Shown piece by piece: positions 4,001 through 20,000 of a stretch of DNA of 20,000 bases (the stretch's first letter is position 1; each line of letters opens with the position of its first letter). Source of the DNA: an uncultured virus (IMG/VR IMGVR_UViG_2634166398_000002) (Duplodnaviria; Heunggongvirae; Uroviricota; Caudoviricetes); IMG/VR virus record IMGVR_UViG_2634166398_000002; one strand, given 5' to 3'. The position numbers were made by a program, and so were the translations under genes. Under the pieces are notes generated by a model. The model did not search any database. It was given only the letters and a program-made list of their open reading frames with translations, and was not told the DNA's origin.

Positions 4001-7000
4001 ATGCAGATGAACTTGAGTCATTTTCAATAAATGTTTCAAAATACATGGAAAATATCCAAAAAGCTCTGCAATCGGGAAATAAAAATAATTTTGATTCCGC
4101 CTCTAAAAGCTTAGAACAGCTTGTTGATCAATATATGAGTGGCAAAGATAAAGCTAATGGTTTGGCTTTATCTTATGATGACCTTAAAACTGCCATTGAC
4201 TCTACAAACGATTCTGCACAAACTGCAAAAGTAACATGGGATGAAAATGGTGAAGGTGTAGATGCATTAGGTGAGCAAGTCGGGAATTTATCTGACAAGC
4301 TCAAAGAAGCTAAAGGTGATTTTGAAGCAATTAAAGGAATCATCGATGAATTAGTTGAATCGAAGCAAAATGATGCTGCTATATCTGCTATTCAAAATGA
4401 AGCTTATGACACTATGTCTGACAGCATCTCCCCTTTAAATAACCTCCTTGAAAAAATGTCTGAAGGTAAAAGCATATCTGCAACAGAAGCCATGAAGCTT
4501 ATTCAGAAAGAACATGATCTTGCTGATGCAATTTCTGTTGAAAATGGTGTTGTAAAAATCAACAGAAATGCAGTTGTTAAGCTTCGGGACACAAAACTCA
4601 AAGCTTACAATGATATGCAACAATCTGTAAGACAAGATCTAATTAATCAGGCTAATGCATTAAACAAAAAGATTAATATGTATAAGTCTGAAGTCAAGGC
4701 TATCAAGACTGTTCAAGACGCTTATAAAATGAAGTCTGAGCTTGAAGACAACAAGAAAAAGATATACGACGAACTAAAAAAAGGGAACAGTGGTGCGCTA
4801 CAGTTCCTACCGAAAACACAAGATGATTTAAATCAGGTCACTGATATCACTGATCAGCTTAAAGAGCTTGATAAGCTAGCCGATTTGGCTTCAACTTCCC
4901 TATCTGAAACAGGAACATCTCTTGATGACCTGTCTTCTTCAAGTGATAAAGCCTCTGAGGAAATGAAAACATCTATGTACGTGGCTGATAAATACAAGGA
5001 AGCTCTGGAGAAAGTTAATGCCGAAGTTGAAAAGTACAATAAGCAAGTAAACGACTATCCAAAGTATTCTCAAAGTTATCGAAATGCCCTGCAGAAAGAA
5101 ATTAAAGCTCTTCAACAAAAGAAAAAGCTTATGCAGGAGCAAGCCAAACTCCTCAAGGATCAAATTAAGTCAGGGAACATTGCACAATACGGTATAGTTA
5201 CCTCTTCCCTTTCCTCTGGTTCATCTTCTGGTGGTTCTTATTCTTCCGGTGGCGGGTCTTACTCCGGTAAATACTCCAGCTACATTAATTCTGCCGCAAG
5301 CAAATACGGTGTTGATCCAGCTCTAATTGCAGCTGTAATCCAACAAGAATCAGGATTCAATGCAAAGGCTCGTTCTGGAGCAGGCGCAGCAGGATTAATG
5401 CAGTTGATGCCTTCCACTGCCAAAAGCTTAGGTGTAAACAATGTTTATGATCCTTATCAGAGCATTATGGGTGGCACGAAATATTTAGCCCAACAACTAA
5501 GCAAATTTGGTGGCAATGTTGAAAAAGCACTTGCTGCTTATAATGCAGGGCCTGGTAATGTAATTAAGTATGGCGGCGTCCCTCCTTTCAAGGAAACTCA
5601 GAATTATGTTCAGAAGATCATGTCTAATTACACTAAGTCAATGACTTCTGCTAATTCCTCCATTGCAAGCTACTACACGAAGAACAGTGCGTTTAGAATA
5701 AGTTCTAAATATAATGCGCAAGATGGCGCTTACCGATCAACTCCACATAAAGGTATCGACTTCGCAGCAAAAGCTGGAACCGCAATTAAATCGGTTCAGA
5801 GTGGAAAAGTTCAAATTGCTGGTTATAGTAAAACTGCCGGTAACTGGGTTGTCATTCAACAGGATGATGGAAAAGTTGCTAAGTATATGCATATGCTTGA
5901 TACCCCTTCTGTTAAAGCCGGTCAAACTGTTAAAGCTGGCCAGACCATCGGTAAAGTTGGCAGTACGGGTAATTCAACAGGAAATCACCTTCATCTTCAA
6001 ATTGAGGAAAACGGAAAGACGATTGACCCTGAGAAGTATTTAAAAGGTGTCGGTACATCTATTTCAGATGCATCTCAAGCTGAAGCAGAACGACAGCAAG
6101 CAATAGCGCAAGCTAAATCCGATCTTCTCTCCCTCCAAGGTGATATTGATTCAGTAAACGATCAGATCCAAGAGCTCAGATATGAAATCGTTCAATCGAA
6201 ACTTGATGAATATGACAAGCGTATTGGTGATTTTGATGTAAGAATCGCTAAAGACAAGGCGCTGGCTAGCCATTATCTGAGCGACAGTAAAGAATTCCGC
6301 AAGTATACCAATGATCAGAAAAAAGCTTTAACTGAACAGCAAAAGATTCAGAGTCAGAAGGTTTCTTTTATTGAAAAAGAAATTAAAACAAACAAAACTC
6401 TGAATGCCGCTCAAAGAGCACAGCTTGCTGAGGAATTAAAACAAGCTAAGATTGATCTCATCAATTTCCAAGAAGAAGTAAGAGAACTTCGAGGACAGCT
6501 CATTCAGTCTGAGGTTGATCAAACGCTTAACGGTATTGAGAAATCAACCAAGAAAACTGAATCCAAGCTTAAAGATGTTAGCAACAAAATATCCATGACC
6601 GAGGAAGATAAAGACAAGGTTAAATATTATAGCCAACAGATTAAGCTTATTCAGCAGCAACAGAATGAAGCGAAGAAGTATATCAAACAGTTGGAAGCAC
6701 AAAAGAAAGCTGCTAAAGGGTTCCCGGATATTCAGAAACAAATTACTGAAGAAATCGAGAACTGGAAAGACAAGCAGAAGGATTACAACCTGGAGCTTTA
6801 CAACACAAAGAAATCTATCAAAGATGTGTACAAATCTCTTGCTGATGAAGTTGTCTCTATCTACAAAGAGATGTACGAAAAGATGCGTGATATCGAATTA
6901 AAAGCGCACCAAAAAGCTACACAAGACTTGATTGATGAGATTGATAAAACTGATGATGAAGCTAAATACCAAAAAGAGCTCAAAGAAAAGAATCAGGCTA

Positions 7001-7887
7001 TTCAGGAAACCAAAGATAAGCTAAATAAACTGTCTCTCGATGACTCAGATGAAGCAAAATCACAGGTTAAAGACTTAGAAAAGCAACTTCAAGAACAGCA
7101 AGAAGCATTAGATGAGTTTCTTAAAGATCGTGAAAACAGTAAACGAAAAGAATCGTTACAAGATCAGCTTCAAAAAGATGAAGATTCAATTAACAAGAAA
7201 TACGATGATCTCGTTAATGATGAGCGTGGGTTTAAGGAACTTGAGAAAAAGCTAATGGATGGGAAGATTACTGATATTGCTAAGCAACTGAATGAGTTCT
7301 CTAAGTTCATTAACAGCAATATGGAGTCCATTGGGAAAAGCATCTCTAATAACCTTATCGATAAGCTTAAAGAAGCTTCTAATGCCCTTAATACTGTGAC
7401 CAAGGGTAATAAAACTGGAAAAAAGGTATCTTCTTTTGCATCGGGCGGATATACAGGTACAGGACTAGGTGCAGGTAAGCTCGCCTTCCTACACGATAAA
7501 GAGCTCATCCTTAATAAAACCGACACTGCAAATATCTTGGATACAGTAAAAGCTGTACGTGAGAAAGATGCTCCAAGTGAAGAGACGCCAAAATGGGGTC
7601 AAGGTGGGAAATTAACAGCCTTGATTAACAAAGGAATCACGACTATTCCATCAATAATTCCGAATATTAATCAATCCAGTTTTTCTAATAGTTTGATACC
7701 GAGTATTCAAAACCTCTCTTCCCCACCAGATGCAACTAAGTCAGTAAACGGCACTGTAAACAACAATAATTTTAAAGCTACATTTAACATTAATGAATCA
7801 GAAAATCCTCAGAAAACAGCTGATTTTGTATTCAATAAATTTGCAAATGGTCTTAAAAACAAGGGCATAAATTTCAACAACTCATGA
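1003..7887 (+). CDS. cwlP: Tail tape measure protein with lytic transglycosylase (SLT) and M23 endopeptidase domains (CwlP/YomI)
   Basis: Likely TTG start at 1003 after RBS AAAGGA, giving [28 protein letters not shown], which resembles the SPbeta YomI N-terminus. It has a TP901-type tape-measure core and a Ser/Gly linker at about 5200-5270. The SLT motifs are [17 protein letters not shown] and ALAAYNAG. The M23 motifs are HKGIDF, YMHM and HLHLQ. About 2294 aa. Confidence 0.93.
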
Positions 7888-7918
7888 GCCAGTGTATATG
7901 CTGGCTCTTCTTATTTTT
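7886..7918 (+). terminator. Intrinsic terminator-like hairpin after cwlP
   Basis: GAGCCAG-TGTATATG-CTGGCTC followed by TTCTTATTTTT. Confidence 0.65.
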
Positions 7919-7931
7919 GAGGTGATAAAAA

Positions 7932-8693
7932 TTGATTAGAGAAAGCCTCTATTTTTTATTTAATAACGAAAAATCAAGTGACTATGGCGTCACAAATGTT
8001 AATACTGATTCAGGCTTAGTTGAGGAACCGTTCTTAGGCTCAAGAACAGTCAATGAAACTTATGTAAAGGGTCGACCTGAACCCTACACTGAAGGTGTTA
8101 AACAGGAACCTAAGCAATTCCCATTGAATTTTTATCTCGGTGATCACTTTGATGAAAAGAATGTACGAGCAATTAAACGTTGGTTAAGTGTAGATGATTA
8201 CAAGCCTTTTGCGTTTAGCCAAAACCTTGATATCGTTTATTATGCAATGCCAGTAGATACAGCTGATTTAGTTCATAATGCCGCTCGTAATGGCTACGTC
8301 CGGTTAACTATGAAATGCAACTCCCCTTACGCTTACAGTCGAAATGCAATTACTCATGCCTTTGATATATCCTCTGGTACTGAAATTGTTGAGTTGCATA
8401 ATAAAGGCGATGTAAACATCTTCCCCTCTTTAGAAATATTGAAAATTGGTGATGGTGACATAAAAATCGAAAATCTCAGTGATTTCAGCGAACCGTTTTT
8501 ATTCAGCAACTTGAAAGATAAGGAGCTCTTAAAAATAAACAGCGAAAAAGAAATTATTGAGTCTAATCTTTATGGCAATGAGCGCTATGACGATTTTAAT
8601 GACCAGTACTTGAGATTGGGATTTGGAAGGAACAGATTAAAGGTTACAGGGAATTGCAAATTAAGATTTTCATTTAGATACAAGTATTTGTAG
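7932..8693 (+). CDS. yomH: Distal tail (Dit-like) protein, YomH-like
   Basis: 253 aa, TTG start after RBS GAGGTGA. It occupies the position right after the tape measure and has Dit-like motifs (FNNEKSSDYGV, CNSPYAYS, LGFGRNRLKV). Confidence 0.8.
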   Translation: MIRESLYFLFNNEKSSDYGVTNVNTDSGLVEEPFLGSRTVNETYVKGRPEPYTEGVKQEPKQFPLNFYLGDHFDEKNVRAIKRWLSVDDYKPFAFSQNLDIVYYAMPVDTADLVHNAARNGYVRLTMKCNSPYAYSRNAITHAFDISSGTEIVELHNKGDVNIFPSLEILKIGDGDIKIENLSDFSEPFLFSNLKDKELLKINSEKEIIESNLYGNERYDDFNDQYLRLGFGRNRLKVTGNCKLRFSFRYKYL

Positions 8694-12005
<3,312 letters not shown>

Positions 12006-12025
12006 GAAAGGACGGTGAATTTAGT

Positions 12026-12844
12026 TTGGATTTTCCTCAGCTCTATAACGACCCTACACTTTCTCAAAAAAGGAAGGGTTCAATCGATGACCCTTATTTA
12101 AGCTATAGTGAAACTTTAACTGTTTACAATGGTCGAGTCTTACTTACAGAAGTGCCTAACCGTGAGTACAGGGTCGAGGTTAGTGGTGACAGTAAAGAAT
12201 GGCGAGAAATTGAAGATGGTGAATTAGAAGACAACTACTTTAAGGTTGATTATCTTATGGGAGTTGTCTTTTTCAATGGTTCAAATGAAGGCAAATCACT
12301 TACTTTTACATATCAAGGAGAAGGCGCATCCTTCTTCCCTGCCTCAAGAATTTGGATTAAACGACAAGGAAATATGGTCATTGAAACGCTTCAAGGCTTA
12401 ATTGATGATGCTGAAGATGCCATTATTCGTATCAATGAACGTATTGCTGAATGTGAACGTGTCACCAAGCGATGTATTGAAATAACAAATTGGTGCAGAC
12501 AAGCAACATCAGATTATGAATATGTAGTTGAAAACACTAGGAAGATTTACAAACCCTCTGTTTATACATTCGCAGATATACAAACAACTTACCCCAATCC
12601 ACTTATAGGATGGACGGTTGCTGTAAAAGAAAACAAAACCGTGTATAGATGGGATGGTTTTGATTGGATTGATATTGGAACTTCGGAAGCTTACGAAGGT
12701 TTCAATATCTTATTAAGCGCTGTAGAACCTTTCAATACTAATTATGTATGGTATCAGGATGAAGGCTTAATTCCAGAAAAACAAAGAGTTGTTATATCAA
12801 ACGTTGCTCCAGAATCAGGTGCAGTTTGGTATGAAATTGATTAA
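12026..12844 (+). CDS. yomF: YomF-like baseplate/tail protein
   Basis: 272 aa, TTG start after GAAAGGACGGTGA. Size and position match SPbeta yomF as recalled. It carries a tail-protein-like motif (YPNPLIGWTVAVKENKTVYRWDG). Confidence 0.7.
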   Translation: MDFPQLYNDPTLSQKRKGSIDDPYLSYSETLTVYNGRVLLTEVPNREYRVEVSGDSKEWREIEDGELEDNYFKVDYLMGVVFFNGSNEGKSLTFTYQGEGASFFPASRIWIKRQGNMVIETLQGLIDDAEDAIIRINERIAECERVTKRCIEITNWCRQATSDYEYVVENTRKIYKPSVYTFADIQTTYPNPLIGWTVAVKENKTVYRWDGFDWIDIGTSEAYEGFNILLSAVEPFNTNYVWYQDEGLIPEKQRVVISNVAPESGAVWYEID

Positions 12845-17152: not shown

Positions 17153-17404
17153 ATGACTAAAATTAACTGGAAAGTAAGACTAAAAAAGAAAACATTCCTG
17201 GTTGCAATCTTCTCTGCAACTCTTTTGTTTGCACAAGCAATTGCATCAGCTTTTGGATACGATATTTCTGTGTTTAGTGATGATCTCACTGAGAAATTTA
17301 ATGCACTGCTGACATTTTTAACTGCCATGGGAATTGTAGTGGATCCAACCACTACAGGTATCTCAGATAGTGATCAAGCAATGGAATACACAGAACCAAA
17401 ATAA
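17153..17404 (+). CDS. Holin, phiLC3 family
   Basis: 83 aa, RBS AAGGAG. Family signature INWKVRLK.K.F and GIVVDPTT.GISDS..A..Y..PK, with two TM helices. Confidence 0.9.
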   Translation: MTKINWKVRLKKKTFLVAIFSATLLFAQAIASAFGYDISVFSDDLTEKFNALLTFLTAMGIVVDPTTTGISDSDQAMEYTEPK

Positions 17405-17455: not shown

Positions 17456-17746
17456 TTGTTGGTCATGCAAATAGGATCTGGATATATCGGGAGTCCAATG
17501 CTTGAGAAGTCAGAATCTAACCATGAAGTGATCCCTTCCCCACCTGCAACCTGGACGATTAAATATTCTTTCTATAAATTCAGCTTTTCGAATGATCAGG
17601 AATGCCACGTATCAATCAATGGTGGTGATCCTATCTATTTAAGAGCTGGACAAGGCTTTCAAATGGACGCTCATGATTCACCTATCACAAGCTTCAAAAT
17701 TTCTGAGTCAGGAATAACATATAATTTTTTGGGGGCGCATAAATGA
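17456..17746 (+). CDS. Small hypothetical, probably beta-rich protein (start uncertain: 17456, 17459 or 17465)
   Basis: RBS GAAAGGA, 93-96 aa. The stop overlaps the next start (ATGA at 17743-17746), implying translational coupling. Confidence 0.7.
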   Translation: MLVMQIGSGYIGSPMLEKSESNHEVIPSPPATWTIKYSFYKFSFSNDQECHVSINGGDPIYLRAGQGFQMDAHDSPITSFKISESGITYNFLGAHK

Positions 17747-18021
17747 GTTTCTTCAATCCAATGGTTAATGTCTCAATTGTCACTGGGAAGTCTGCTTATG
17801 ATATTGCAGTAGACAATGGTTTTTCAGGAACTGTAGAGGAATGGTTAGCTTCATTAAAAGGTGAAAAAGGCGATACTGGAGCTACTGGTGCAACCGGGGT
17901 TAAAGGTGCTACTGGTGCTGCCGGTAAAGATGGAAAATCAGCATATGAATTAGCCGTTCAACAAGGTTTCTCAGGAACATTGGATGAGTGGCTTGCCTCA
18001 CTGAAAGCAACAGCAAACTGA
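17743..18021 (+). CDS. Mini collagen-like protein with a duplicated KSAY...GFSGT..EWLASLK motif
   Basis: 92 aa. The motif GKSAYDIAVDNGFSGTVEEWLASLK is followed by nine Gly-X-Y triplets (GEK GDT GAT GAT GVK GAT GAA GKD GKS), which run into a second copy, GKSAYELAVQQGFSGTLDEWLASLK. Confidence 0.8.
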   Translation: MSFFNPMVNVSIVTGKSAYDIAVDNGFSGTVEEWLASLKGEKGDTGATGATGVKGATGAAGKDGKSAYELAVQQGFSGTLDEWLASLKATAN

Positions 18022-18026
18022 TAACG

Positions 18027-18057
18027 TACCCTTCTCTAACGAGGAGGGTATTTTTTT
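18027..18057 (+). terminator. Intrinsic terminator
   Basis: TACCCTTCTC-TAAC-GAGGAGGGTA followed by TTTTTTT. Confidence 0.8.
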
Positions 18058-18139
18058 CGTTTCGGTCATAAACAAATTATTGATTTGTTTTTAATTTTCA
18101 CTCAAATCCCCTTTACATTTCTTTCCTCTAATGCAACTA

Positions 18140-18164
18140 TATAATAAAATGGATATGAAAGGGG
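18140..18164 (+). promoter_or_regulatory. Putative SigA -10 element and RBS of rap
   Basis: TATAAT at 18140-18145 and RBS AAAGGGG at 18158-18164. There is no well-spaced -35 (TTTACA at 18112-18117 is 22 bp away). Confidence 0.4.
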
Positions 18165-18172
18165 TTTAGGAC

Positions 18173-19333
18173 TTGAAGAGTGAAAAAGTCATTCCTTATG
18201 ATTTAGTAGCAACAAAGATGAATCATTGGTATGTGGCTATTAAAAAGAATTGGGTCGGTAGAGCAGAAGAAATGCGTAAAGAAGTTATGCAGGAAATAAA
18301 AGTTATGGAAGAAAATCAAGATGTTTTACTATACTACTCCCTACTTGAGTTTAGACATAAGCTAATGTTGGCATATATGTATCCTAACGCTATAAAAGAT
18401 ATTGAGAAAAATTATGGCGAGCTAAAAGAATATGAAGGTCATGGAAATTTAACAGGAATGCTGGAATATTACTATTACTTTTTCATGGGCATGTTCTATT
18501 TCAGACAAAAAGAGTTAACATTCTCCCTTAATTACTATAGACAAGCTGAGAGGTATTTGGATTCAATCGAGAGTGGAGATATTGAAGTTGAAAAAGCTGA
18601 ATTTTATTTTAAATTGTCAGAAGTGTATTACCACATGAAACAGACTTATTTTTCAATGAATTATGCCATGAGGGCTTACGATATATTTAAAAAACAACCT
18701 GCTATTGACGGGAACCCTACATACGGGGTACAAAAGGTGCGCTGTCAATTCGTCATATTTGGTAATTTGCTGGACAGTATGAAGTTTGATGAAGCTTTAA
18801 AGCAAGCATACAAAGCGTATCAGGAGGCAGTAGAGCTAAACAAAAGTGAAAAGAATCGTGGGCATTTGATGCGTTCAGCACTGTTTAATATTGGATTGTG
18901 TTATAATCAAATGGAAGAACTTGATAAAGCATTTTTTCACTTTAATAAGTCACTTCAAATCATTGAGCCGGAAAATCATGATTACGCTGCTAAGACATTA
19001 TTTGTTATCTCCTTCTTAAAGGGAAGGCAAAATGACGTTGAAAACGCAAAAAAATTTTATGAACAGGCCAAACAGCTGGCTGAACGGCATAACAATGAAA
19101 TGGTACTTGAAAAGTTAAAAATGGTTAAAGGACTTTTCTTGGACTATGATTTAGACTTAGTTAGGAAAACATTCGAGTTCTTCAAAGAAAGAGGTATATA
19201 CCCTGACATGGAAAGTTATGGTGTCTCTGTAGCAGATTTTCTCACTGGAAAACAGGATGCTTGGGGTGCAGTTGAATTTTATCGTTTGGCAAATGAAGCA
19301 AGAAGACAAATCAAAAGGGGAGAAGCAATATGA
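18173..19333 (+). CDS. rap: Rap-family TPR response-regulator aspartate phosphatase / peptide receptor, RapI-like
   Basis: 386 aa, TTG start. Rap signatures are IPYDLVA.KMN.WY..IK, MEENQDVLLYYSLLEFRH..ML (catalytic-position Gln49 present), LTGMLEYYYYFF.GM, EKAEFYFK...YYHMKQTYFSMNYA and C-terminal ARRQIKRGE. Confidence 0.93.
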   Translation: MKSEKVIPYDLVATKMNHWYVAIKKNWVGRAEEMRKEVMQEIKVMEENQDVLLYYSLLEFRHKLMLAYMYPNAIKDIEKNYGELKEYEGHGNLTGMLEYYYYFFMGMFYFRQKELTFSLNYYRQAERYLDSIESGDIEVEKAEFYFKLSEVYYHMKQTYFSMNYAMRAYDIFKKQPAIDGNPTYGVQKVRCQFVIFGNLLDSMKFDEALKQAYKAYQEAVELNKSEKNRGHLMRSALFNIGLCYNQMEELDKAFFHFNKSLQIIEPENHDYAAKTLFVISFLKGRQNDVENAKKFYEQAKQLAERHNNEMVLEKLKMVKGLFLDYDLDLVRKTFEFFKERGIYPDMESYGVSVADFLTGKQDAWGAVEFYRLANEARRQIKRGEAI

Positions 19334-19449
19334 AAACTAAACTATTTATCTGTGCAGTTCTATTATTCGGCGTTGCCGGAACATTGGGTGCTTCCTATCT
19401 CCAACAACAAAATGATACGTTCAAGGTTGCTGAAAGAGCCGAAACGTAA
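19330..19449 (+). CDS. phr: Phr-family secreted signalling propeptide (39 aa; predicted mature peptide ERAET or AERAET); absent from the supplied ORF track
   Basis: Hand-translated as MKTKLFICAVLLFGVAGTLGASYLQQQNDTFKVAERAET*. The ATG overlaps the rap stop (ATGA) and follows RBS AAAGGGGAG. It has a basic N-terminus, a hydrophobic signal region and a C-terminal pentapeptide with Arg at position 2, preceded by Val-Ala. Confidence 0.9.
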   Translation: MKTKLFICAVLLFGVAGTLGASYLQQQNDTFKVAERAET

Positions 19450-19469: not shown

Positions 19470-19498
19470 GAGAACAGAGGGAGCTGCTCTCTGTTCTC
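19470..19498. terminator. Hairpin between the convergent phr and uvrX genes (possible bidirectional terminator)
   Basis: GAGAACAGAG-GGAGCTGCT-CTCTGTTCTC, a perfect 10-bp stem. U-tracts are weak on both strands. Confidence 0.6.
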
Positions 19499-20000
19499 AT
19501 GACTTATGTCCACCAGTCAAACCTGCTCTATGCAATGCTGTTCCACCAGGTGTATATGAAACAGCTCGTAAGATCGCTTTAGATCCGTATTTATTTCTTA
19601 TCCCGTCCATCACAAATCCAAGCTTCCTTCTCTTCTCATTATCCTTTTCAAACAGACTTAATTGCTGATTCACATCGTCTTCAATATTGGATAAAGTAAC
19701 TGAAATACTTCTTACTGTTTTTCCTGTATAGAACTTATCAAACAAAATCAAGCAGTATCGATAAATATCCATTGTGATATTCGTAGGCAAATCAATTGTT
19801 TTAGATCTGTGAAAGCCACCGCCGAACTCATCTTTACTGTAACCAATTCCTAAGCTGATCGTACGCCCTACTTTGTTATGTGTTCGTGCTCTTCGTGCAA
19901 CCTCTTCACAAATCTCCAAGAGGACTACTTTGATATCCTCTTTCTTCGTATAATCTCTAAGTAATATCTGGCTTTTCCCGTAGCTTATTTGCCCCTGCAT
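19497..20000 (-). CDS. uvrX: C-terminal part of a Y-family (UmuC/ImpB-like) DNA damage polymerase, UvrX-like; 5' end outside the window
   Basis: Little-finger domain motifs SYGKSQIL.RDY, EEVARRAR, GGGFHRS.T, QLSLF (clamp-binding) and MDGIRNKYGSKAILRAVSY...GGHK. Position and orientation match SPbeta uvrX. Confidence 0.88.
   Translation of the reverse strand: MQGQISYGKSQILLRDYTKKEDIKVVLLEICEEVARRARTHNKVGRTISLGIGYSKDEFGGGFHRSKTIDLPTNITMDIYRYCLILFDKFYTGKTVRSISVTLSNIEDDVNQQLSLFEKDNEKRRKLGFVMDGIRNKYGSKAILRAVSYTPGGTALHRAGLTGGHKS

Follow-up and report, generated by a model that had tools for sequence, protein, structure and literature searches.

The tail and lysis end of this SPbeta-like prophage carries a rap gene with a small ORF overlapping its end, which raises the question of whether the two form a working Rap-Phr pair, which signal and host target such a pair would have, and whether it is new. 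The window, i.e. the whole stretch of 20,000 nucleotides analysed, runs through the tape measure, tail proteins, amidase, holin, two small genes and rap to the convergent uvrX. The genes and signals that matter here are the following.

17153..17404, plus strand: holin, left boundary of the slot (Pfam Phage_holin_1, E=1e-26; 87% to the phi3T holin)
17456..18021, plus strand: a 96-aa gene (unknown) and a 92-aa collagen-like gene, both small, accessory and outside the Rap-Phr unit
18158-18164, plus strand: rap ribosome site, AAAGGGG
18173..19333, plus strand: rap, TTG start, 386 aa, predicted Spo0F phosphatase of the RapP/RapI clade with catalytic Q49
19314-19322, plus strand: phr ribosome site, AAAGGGGAG
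19330..19449, plus strand: phr, ATG start, 39-aa Sec-type propeptide
19432..19446, plus strand: coding stretch for ERAET, the predicted mature signal (AERAET, from 19429, if a hexapeptide)
19497..20000, minus strand: uvrX/yolE (Y-family polymerase), 3' end, which bounds the slot on the right (Pfam IMS_C, E=1e-25; same position in phi3T)

The preliminary description of a complete rap gene with a 4-nt overlap (ATGA) to a 39-codon ORF was exact in its coordinates and quoted translation. This ORF comes immediately downstream of rap, on its strand, and encodes a polypeptide with a basic N-terminus and a hydrophobic core. Three ATG ORFs of 30 to 60 codons pass a crude signal-peptide filter in the whole window; since phr alone among them combines a ribosome site with a basic -4 residue, it is not a chance ORF. 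Pfam and PHROG searches with its product gave no match. The published SignalP value for the allele of Bacillus velezensis SQR9 (RRNPP_detector, Table S4) is Sec/SPI 0.70, with a cut at 21-22. The gene had been presented as unannotated: it was indeed absent from the ORF track supplied with the sequence, but it is called in public records (AHZ16189.1). Three of the 15 listed members of its protein cluster are named, all as hypothetical or putative membrane protein.

The rap product has a Pfam RapH_N domain (E=3e-23, residues 7-66) and TPR repeats, with full-length matches to RapI, RapJ, RapF and RapH; its best relative of solved structure is RapI (4i1a, E=1.5e-91). The N-terminal three-helix bundle, the TPR part, the lack of a DNA-binding domain and the length of 386 aa (norm ~370-390) are the build of a Rap-Phr receptor, whereas a domain search gave no match to the arbitrium receptor AimR. 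From the recovered set of 88 intact Rap ORFs, 40 entered the phylogeny after near-duplicates had been dropped; reference names were set from the adjacent peptide, RapP and Rap3T were taken from named records, and the labels RapF-like and RapD-like were assigned here. The protein groups with RapP and RapI-like proteins in a clade of 19 rows (support 99/96). Inside it, a 17-row clade (100/99) holds the window Rap together with RapP, and the RapI-like rows branch outside. The ERAET/ERMET/ERMAT group has RapP as its sister, at a fork whose support of 93/83 does not reach the starred threshold. Sequence identity is 48.7% to RapP, 44.1% to RapI-like, 32.5% to RapC-like proteins and 31.8% to Rap3T. 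The label RapI-like, initially given to the gene, is thus fair with respect to clade and best structural match, and the phylogeny that had been called for does place the pair near RapI; RapP is closer, however, and appears to be the nearest characterised relative of the ERAET Rap. Orthology to RapI would go with a DRVGA peptide, an ICE context and a position as sister to RapI, while the locus has ERAET, lies between holin and uvrX, and leaves RapI outside the 17-row clade.

Three characterised systems help to situate the pair. RapP-PhrP of plasmid pBS32 (signal DRAAT) has a similar propeptide and pocket and shares with the ERAET Rap an insertion before Y184, but is plasmid-borne and has Glu, not Gln, at the catalytic column. 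Its NCIB 3610 allele is peptide-deaf (N236T), whereas the ERAET Rap keeps the Asn. RapI-PhrI of ICEBs1 ((A)DRVGA) has in common with the ERAET Rap the ENQ..L motif, R190, K274 and K314, but has another peptide and an identity of 44%; the N-terminal bundle of the ERAET Rap is closer to that of RapI (ENQ..L) than to that of RapP (KNE..A). Rap3T-Phr3T of phi3T (RRGHTA/SRGHTS) occupies the same holin-uvrX slot, but belongs to another clade, has duplicated peptides, and displays the RapF-type ComA residues F, P, D and L that the ERAET Rap does not have.

Comparison of the peptide pocket used the positions of Gallego del Sol and Marina 2013 (PMC3601957). The anchors Y68, Y153, D201 and N239 are kept, as mapped by eye from the matches to solved Rap structures and by an alignment, which recovers the known N-to-T change of RapP at the N239 column. 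Four residues differ from the RapF anchors (R190, S235, K274, S348), and at V311 a Tyr would have gone with an acidic first residue; these departures count against the proposed peptide fit, though RapP has the S, K and V as well. K314 occupies the position of RapF E303 and RapJ K300, where a Lys goes with an acidic first peptide residue (PMC3601957, PMC3601965), and therefore fits E1 of ERAET. The basic residue at -4 is the R of ERAET, for which the matching Asp (D201) and the Asn anchor (N239) are present. We do not claim R234 as the partner of peptide E4: it is found in 7/7 rows with E4 and in 0/33 others, but all seven belong to one clade and a DRIET Rap has a Tyr (by eye, Even-Tov table). 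The proposed ERAET signal stands as a prediction and is not a peptide of strain 168. Processing, import and inhibition of Rap are likewise predicted for (A)ERAET; penta- and hexapeptide forms both inhibit RapI (PMC3601965).

Cross-talk with PhrC had been envisaged for the pair. It is poorly supported, since the Rap belongs to the RapP/RapI clade, far from RapC-like proteins (33%), and since 10/19 pocket positions match a RapC-like protein against 14/19 for the Asn allele of RapP; an ERMET Rap (L010) also matches at 14/19. Strong orthogonality among Rap-Phr pairs (Even-Tov et al. 2016, PMC5199041) speaks against it too. Were the ERAET Rap to cross-react, DRAAT or ERMET would be likelier partners than PhrC.

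The pair is real but already known: public catalogues have listed it since 2016, the predicted peptide and the location in a phage are in print as well, and the novelty first envisaged for it does not hold. Cluster 91 in S1 Data of Even-Tov et al. (PMC5199041) has the signal ERAET and 10 rows, three of which give the identical 39-aa propeptide with a Rap one residue different from that of the window. The cluster bears no characterised Rap name there and is listed beside the RapI, ERMET and RapP clusters; the main text of that paper, for its part, mentions neither ERAET nor prophages. Bernard et al. 2021 (PMC8027211, Fig. S2B) place an ERAET rap-phr pair (AHZ16188.1/AHZ16189.1) in a prophage of B. 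velezensis SQR9 with arbitrium SASRGA, and Table S4 of RRNPP_detector (PMC10075063) gives the SQR9 pair a -4 overlap, a Sec signal and the same predicted peptide. AHZ16188.1 is in the same 90% protein cluster as the window Rap. The SQR9 pair is known from prediction only, and its AimP SASRGA differs from the SIIRGA of G002, the record nearest to the window, whose Rap is 100% identical. Pair, peptide and presence in an arbitrium prophage are therefore all found in the supplements of three papers. More broadly, 326 viral Rap-Phr systems have been counted (bioRxiv 10.1101/2021.07.15.452460) and the Rap of phi3T has been noted (PMC8044106). A functional test of the ERAET pair was not found in the full texts searched, which leave aside supplements and most subscription papers, so that one may exist.

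Which host protein would this Rap act on? The Spo0F-interface positions named by Parashar et al. 2011 (PMC3035606) were mapped via a RapH-like orthologue whose numbering reproduces all the named residues, and 13 of the 18 published positions were compared. Nine of the 13 are identical (I42, E47, Q49, L52, Y55, L57, F60, E140, Y184), including Q49 and L52, the counterparts of catalytic Gln47 and of Leu50 in RapA/H/I/J-type Spo0F phosphatases; a His at the L52-equivalent position blocks activity in RapF (PMC3035606). N48 and M96 are the residues of RapI, a proven Spo0F phosphatase (Parashar et al. 2013, PMC3601965). Of the TPR-side contacts L96, D134, E137 and Y175, the last two are kept as E140 and Y184, the first is M96 as in RapI, and the D134 column has a Ser within an insertion of 3 residues in the loop of RapH S133/D134 (aligned with E133/S134). 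A further insertion of 6 residues precedes Y184. Sporulation control by the ERAET Rap is what these residues suggest. Against it stand the two insertions and the finding of Even-Tov et al. that Spo0F-contact residues are conserved regardless of the effect of a Rap on Spo0A, 4/10 of their new Raps acting on neither pathway (PMC5199041).

We consider it likely that the two genes are a functional Rap-Phr cassette, carried as swappable cargo of an SPbeta-like phage, in which Rap would dephosphorylate Spo0F~P at low density and be shut off by (A)ERAET at high density. Both genes would be transcribed in lysogens; the N-terminal three-helix bundle would bind Spo0F~P and Q49 dephosphorylate it, so that Spo0A~P would be lowered and commitment to sporulation and biofilm delayed. 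The propeptide would leave the cell by Sec, be trimmed to ERAET or AERAET and return through Opp to lodge in the TPR channel, with R2 facing D201, the peptide backbone N239 and Y153, and E1 K314. This would close Rap and lift the delay once carriers of the allele are dense, the whole working beside arbitrium. There is a precedent in Rap3T: it represses reporters of both sporulation and competence, and the addition of peptide ends this repression (Felipe-Ruiz 2024, PMC11343458). If the mechanism holds, the prophage is one more SPbeta-like element that times host sporulation by its own density, as with Rap3T, but using a receptor of another clade in the same slot.

The Rap may also inhibit ComA, as RapP does, which would extend this mechanism to two targets and make low-density lysogens 'cheaters' for surfactin and competence. 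None of the six RapF-type ComA contacts (F24, P27, D28, L67, E71, Q78; set of Baker and Neiditch 2011, PMC3246441) is kept, the corresponding residues being N26, G29, R30, M69, A73 and N80. Such contacts are nevertheless unneeded for ComA inhibition, and Raps acquired ComA as a target on several occasions through different residues (PMC5199041), so inhibition of the RapP type stays compatible with the 0/6 count. RapP affects both pathways (PMC5199041, PMC12935306) although it too has no RapF-type contacts, and the slot-mate Rap3T represses both (PMC11343458). Against this, RapI, the next relative, affects only Spo0A (PMC5199041), and it is RapI's bundle motif that the ERAET Rap resembles. We hold the dual target to be a tenable but doubtful extension.

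The preferred reading, a Spo0F-directed cassette, supposes expression in lysogens. The candidate transcription signals around the pair are the following.

18026..18051, plus strand: intrinsic-terminator-like hairpin with a T run, upstream of rap (z=-4.4)
18112..18145, plus strand: candidate rap promoter block TTTACA ... TATAAT, with a non-canonical 22-nt spacing
19470..19498, strand unassigned: 12-bp hairpin in the interval from phr to the convergent uvrX (z=-3.7; 0/200 shuffles as good)

The unit is thus bounded on both sides by the terminator and the hairpin that had been described for it. The 3' arm and T run of the upstream terminator are kept also before RRGHT-type raps and in phi3T; the terminator is common to different cassettes, and the sequence that follows it varies with the cassette. 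The downstream hairpin lacks a T run, and the terminator caller did not report it. It shows a paired C-G to U-A change in L001/L055 (by eye), is replaced by other sequence in L054 and L058, and is the probable transcript end. The promoter block is conserved in 5/5 aligned ERAET alleles though their flank diverges, and was not called by a sigma-70 scan; the alignment makes it a candidate rap promoter. For an internal phr promoter we scanned 24 genes with a sigma-H-type motif: a match with 16-nt spacing at -76 occurs in the window and L043 and is absent from L001 and L058, the motif being erratic on control raps.

Fourteen RNA runs contain 84-97% of the words of the stretch. The contig runs X1 and X4 contain rap, and the raw-read runs X21 and X24 are without it (depth 0-0.5). 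The contig depth of X1, which marks neither a start nor a level, is 2-8 over the holin, 665 over rap, 10,600-12,600 over 19121-19322 and 1,210 over phr. This is compatible with expression in lysogens and with an internal promoter, and supportive at best. The strain of run X24 has a related prophage without the ERAET rap, and in this run read depth reaches ~365 over the 92-aa collagen-like gene (17743-18021).

The position of the cassette was examined in 32 viral loci found with the UvrX C-terminus of the window, a set biased to close relatives in which some loci may be duplicates. Between holin and uvrX lie an ERAET pair (5 loci), an RRGHT-type (11) or ERPVGG-type (6) pair, a sublancin-type cluster (5, confirmed by Pfam for L105), other cargo (4) or only the two small genes (1). 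Those two genes are absent before the 89% ERAET alleles and present before some RRGHT-type raps. In phi3T, rap3T-phr3T lies between holin and uvrX, and the whole genome nearest to the window (G001) has an RRGHT-type Rap only. The gap is a swappable slot, a point added here that we do not claim as new. Its variety among similar phages (three unrelated Rap-Phr types, a sublancin cluster, nothing) offers a natural set for asking what benefit a Rap-Phr pair brings. Four prophages (L121-L124) have in the slot a DUF5907-repeat gene of 700 aa, together with three paralog-sized genes (~282 aa) for which Pfam gave no match, and in L103:9617-14445 (same record as L054) a cluster with an MFS transporter, a methyltransferase and a ThiF-family gene is found between the ERAET phr and uvrX.

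AimR was searched in 15 virus records and is present, elsewhere in the prophage, in 13/13 SPbeta-like ERAET prophages. Their AimP types are SAIRGA (4), SASRGA (4), SPSRGA (3), GMPRGA (1) and SIIRGA (1). With five types, ERAET rap-phr assorts independently of arbitrium type, as expected from the earlier view that the two channels are separate. The two records of the 15 without AimR, L058 (ERAET, 68% Rap identity) and L056 (ERMET), have different gene neighbourhoods.

A main target within mobile elements, either a regulator such as the ImmA-type protease that RapI acts on in ICEBs1 or a phage protein, seems very unlikely to us. RapI does stimulate ImmA (PMC3601965), the ERAET Rap belongs to the clade that contains RapI, and every ERAET context inspected is a prophage or its remnant. 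Identity to RapI-like proteins is only 44%, however, no immA/immR-like neighbours were seen at the inspected loci, whose flanks are holin and uvrX, and the slot receives Raps of three unrelated types as well as a bacteriocin cluster. In addition, a Rap is missing from the slot in 10/32 loci and is therefore dispensable for the phage cycle.

A search for related loci gave 39 genome and 30 viral loci, 21 of which carry the ERAET allele group. As anticipated for a genuine pair, a small ORF ending VAERAET follows rap in 19/21, many of them near-clones, and both exceptions (L013, L008/L091) are broken rap remnants. ERAET is invariant in the 19/19 intact phr copies, down to 68% Rap identity (L058), while more distant Raps (50-60%) are followed by propeptides of the same build ending ERMET, ERMAT, IRIET, ERLAS, ERNAT, DRLQS or DRFGS. 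The 90% Rap cluster has 210 proteins, and its 15 listed members bear at least six species labels (B. subtilis, velezensis, amyloliquefaciens, halotolerans, stercoris, rugosus). Among isolated phages in the INPHARED set searched, from which very near records may be missing, none has the ERAET Rap allele, 0/33 matching records being above 31%. Relative to L001, rap has 92 synonymous and 41 non-synonymous codon changes, and phr 5 and 3. Some alleles are interrupted at one site:

19048..19054, plus strand: A7 run in rap, frameshift site in three published alleles

At this run 3/10 Even-Tov rows (B. amyloliquefaciens TA208, XH7 and strain ATCC 13952) shift frame and end AKKNFMNR...LKS, losing K314 and the last repeats. 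The run is intact in all 13 allele-group viral contigs matched by pattern. In one X4 RNA contig the run is longer by one A (depth 435 of 4158); slippage or an error may account for this.

These frameshifted rows, the broken copies L013, L091 and L097, and the 4/10 new Raps of Even-Tov et al. that affected neither pathway or had no clear effect (PMC5199041) could indicate decaying or inert cargo, a Rap without a strong target in its present hosts. We find this quite unlikely: synonymous changes exceed non-synonymous ones, ERAET is unchanged in L058, the cluster is large and spread over several Bacillus species, and at least two of the three frameshifted rows come from one species. An improbable further reading would make the slot a polymorphic host-control locus, with unrelated pherotypes swapped independently of arbitrium, an ERAET Rap from the mobile RapP/RapI clade that, besides counting its own lysogens, would respond to other mobile elements or act on them (plasmid PhrP DRAAT, ERMET/DRAET peptides, or ImmA/ICEBs1 stimulation), and A7 slippage that would give some cells a shortened, peptide-deaf Rap.

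Several relatives of the cassette have singular organisations. In Bacillus sp. WMMC1349 (L022:6001-7252) a frameshifted relative, which has the same insertion before the Y184 column, is followed by a phr with the ending DRAET, which stands between ERAET and the DRAAT of PhrP. In L057/L097 and the plasmid record NZ_CP097468.1 Rap residues 189-386 alone remain; in L057/L097 the intact phr comes directly after a truncated tape-measure gene, implying a large deletion. A decayed B. tequilensis prophage (L091:1143-2475 and 6900-8067) contains an RRGHT-type rap-phr that is intact and, 5 kb away from it, an ERAET-type rap that is broken. In the ~124 kb virus records L058 and L056, a SMODS nucleotidyltransferase gene (possible CBASS; L058:3409-4206 and L056:4518-5357) adjoins the rap-phr pairs, followed by a DNA ligase gene in L058 and accompanied by a C-5 DNA methylase gene in L056.
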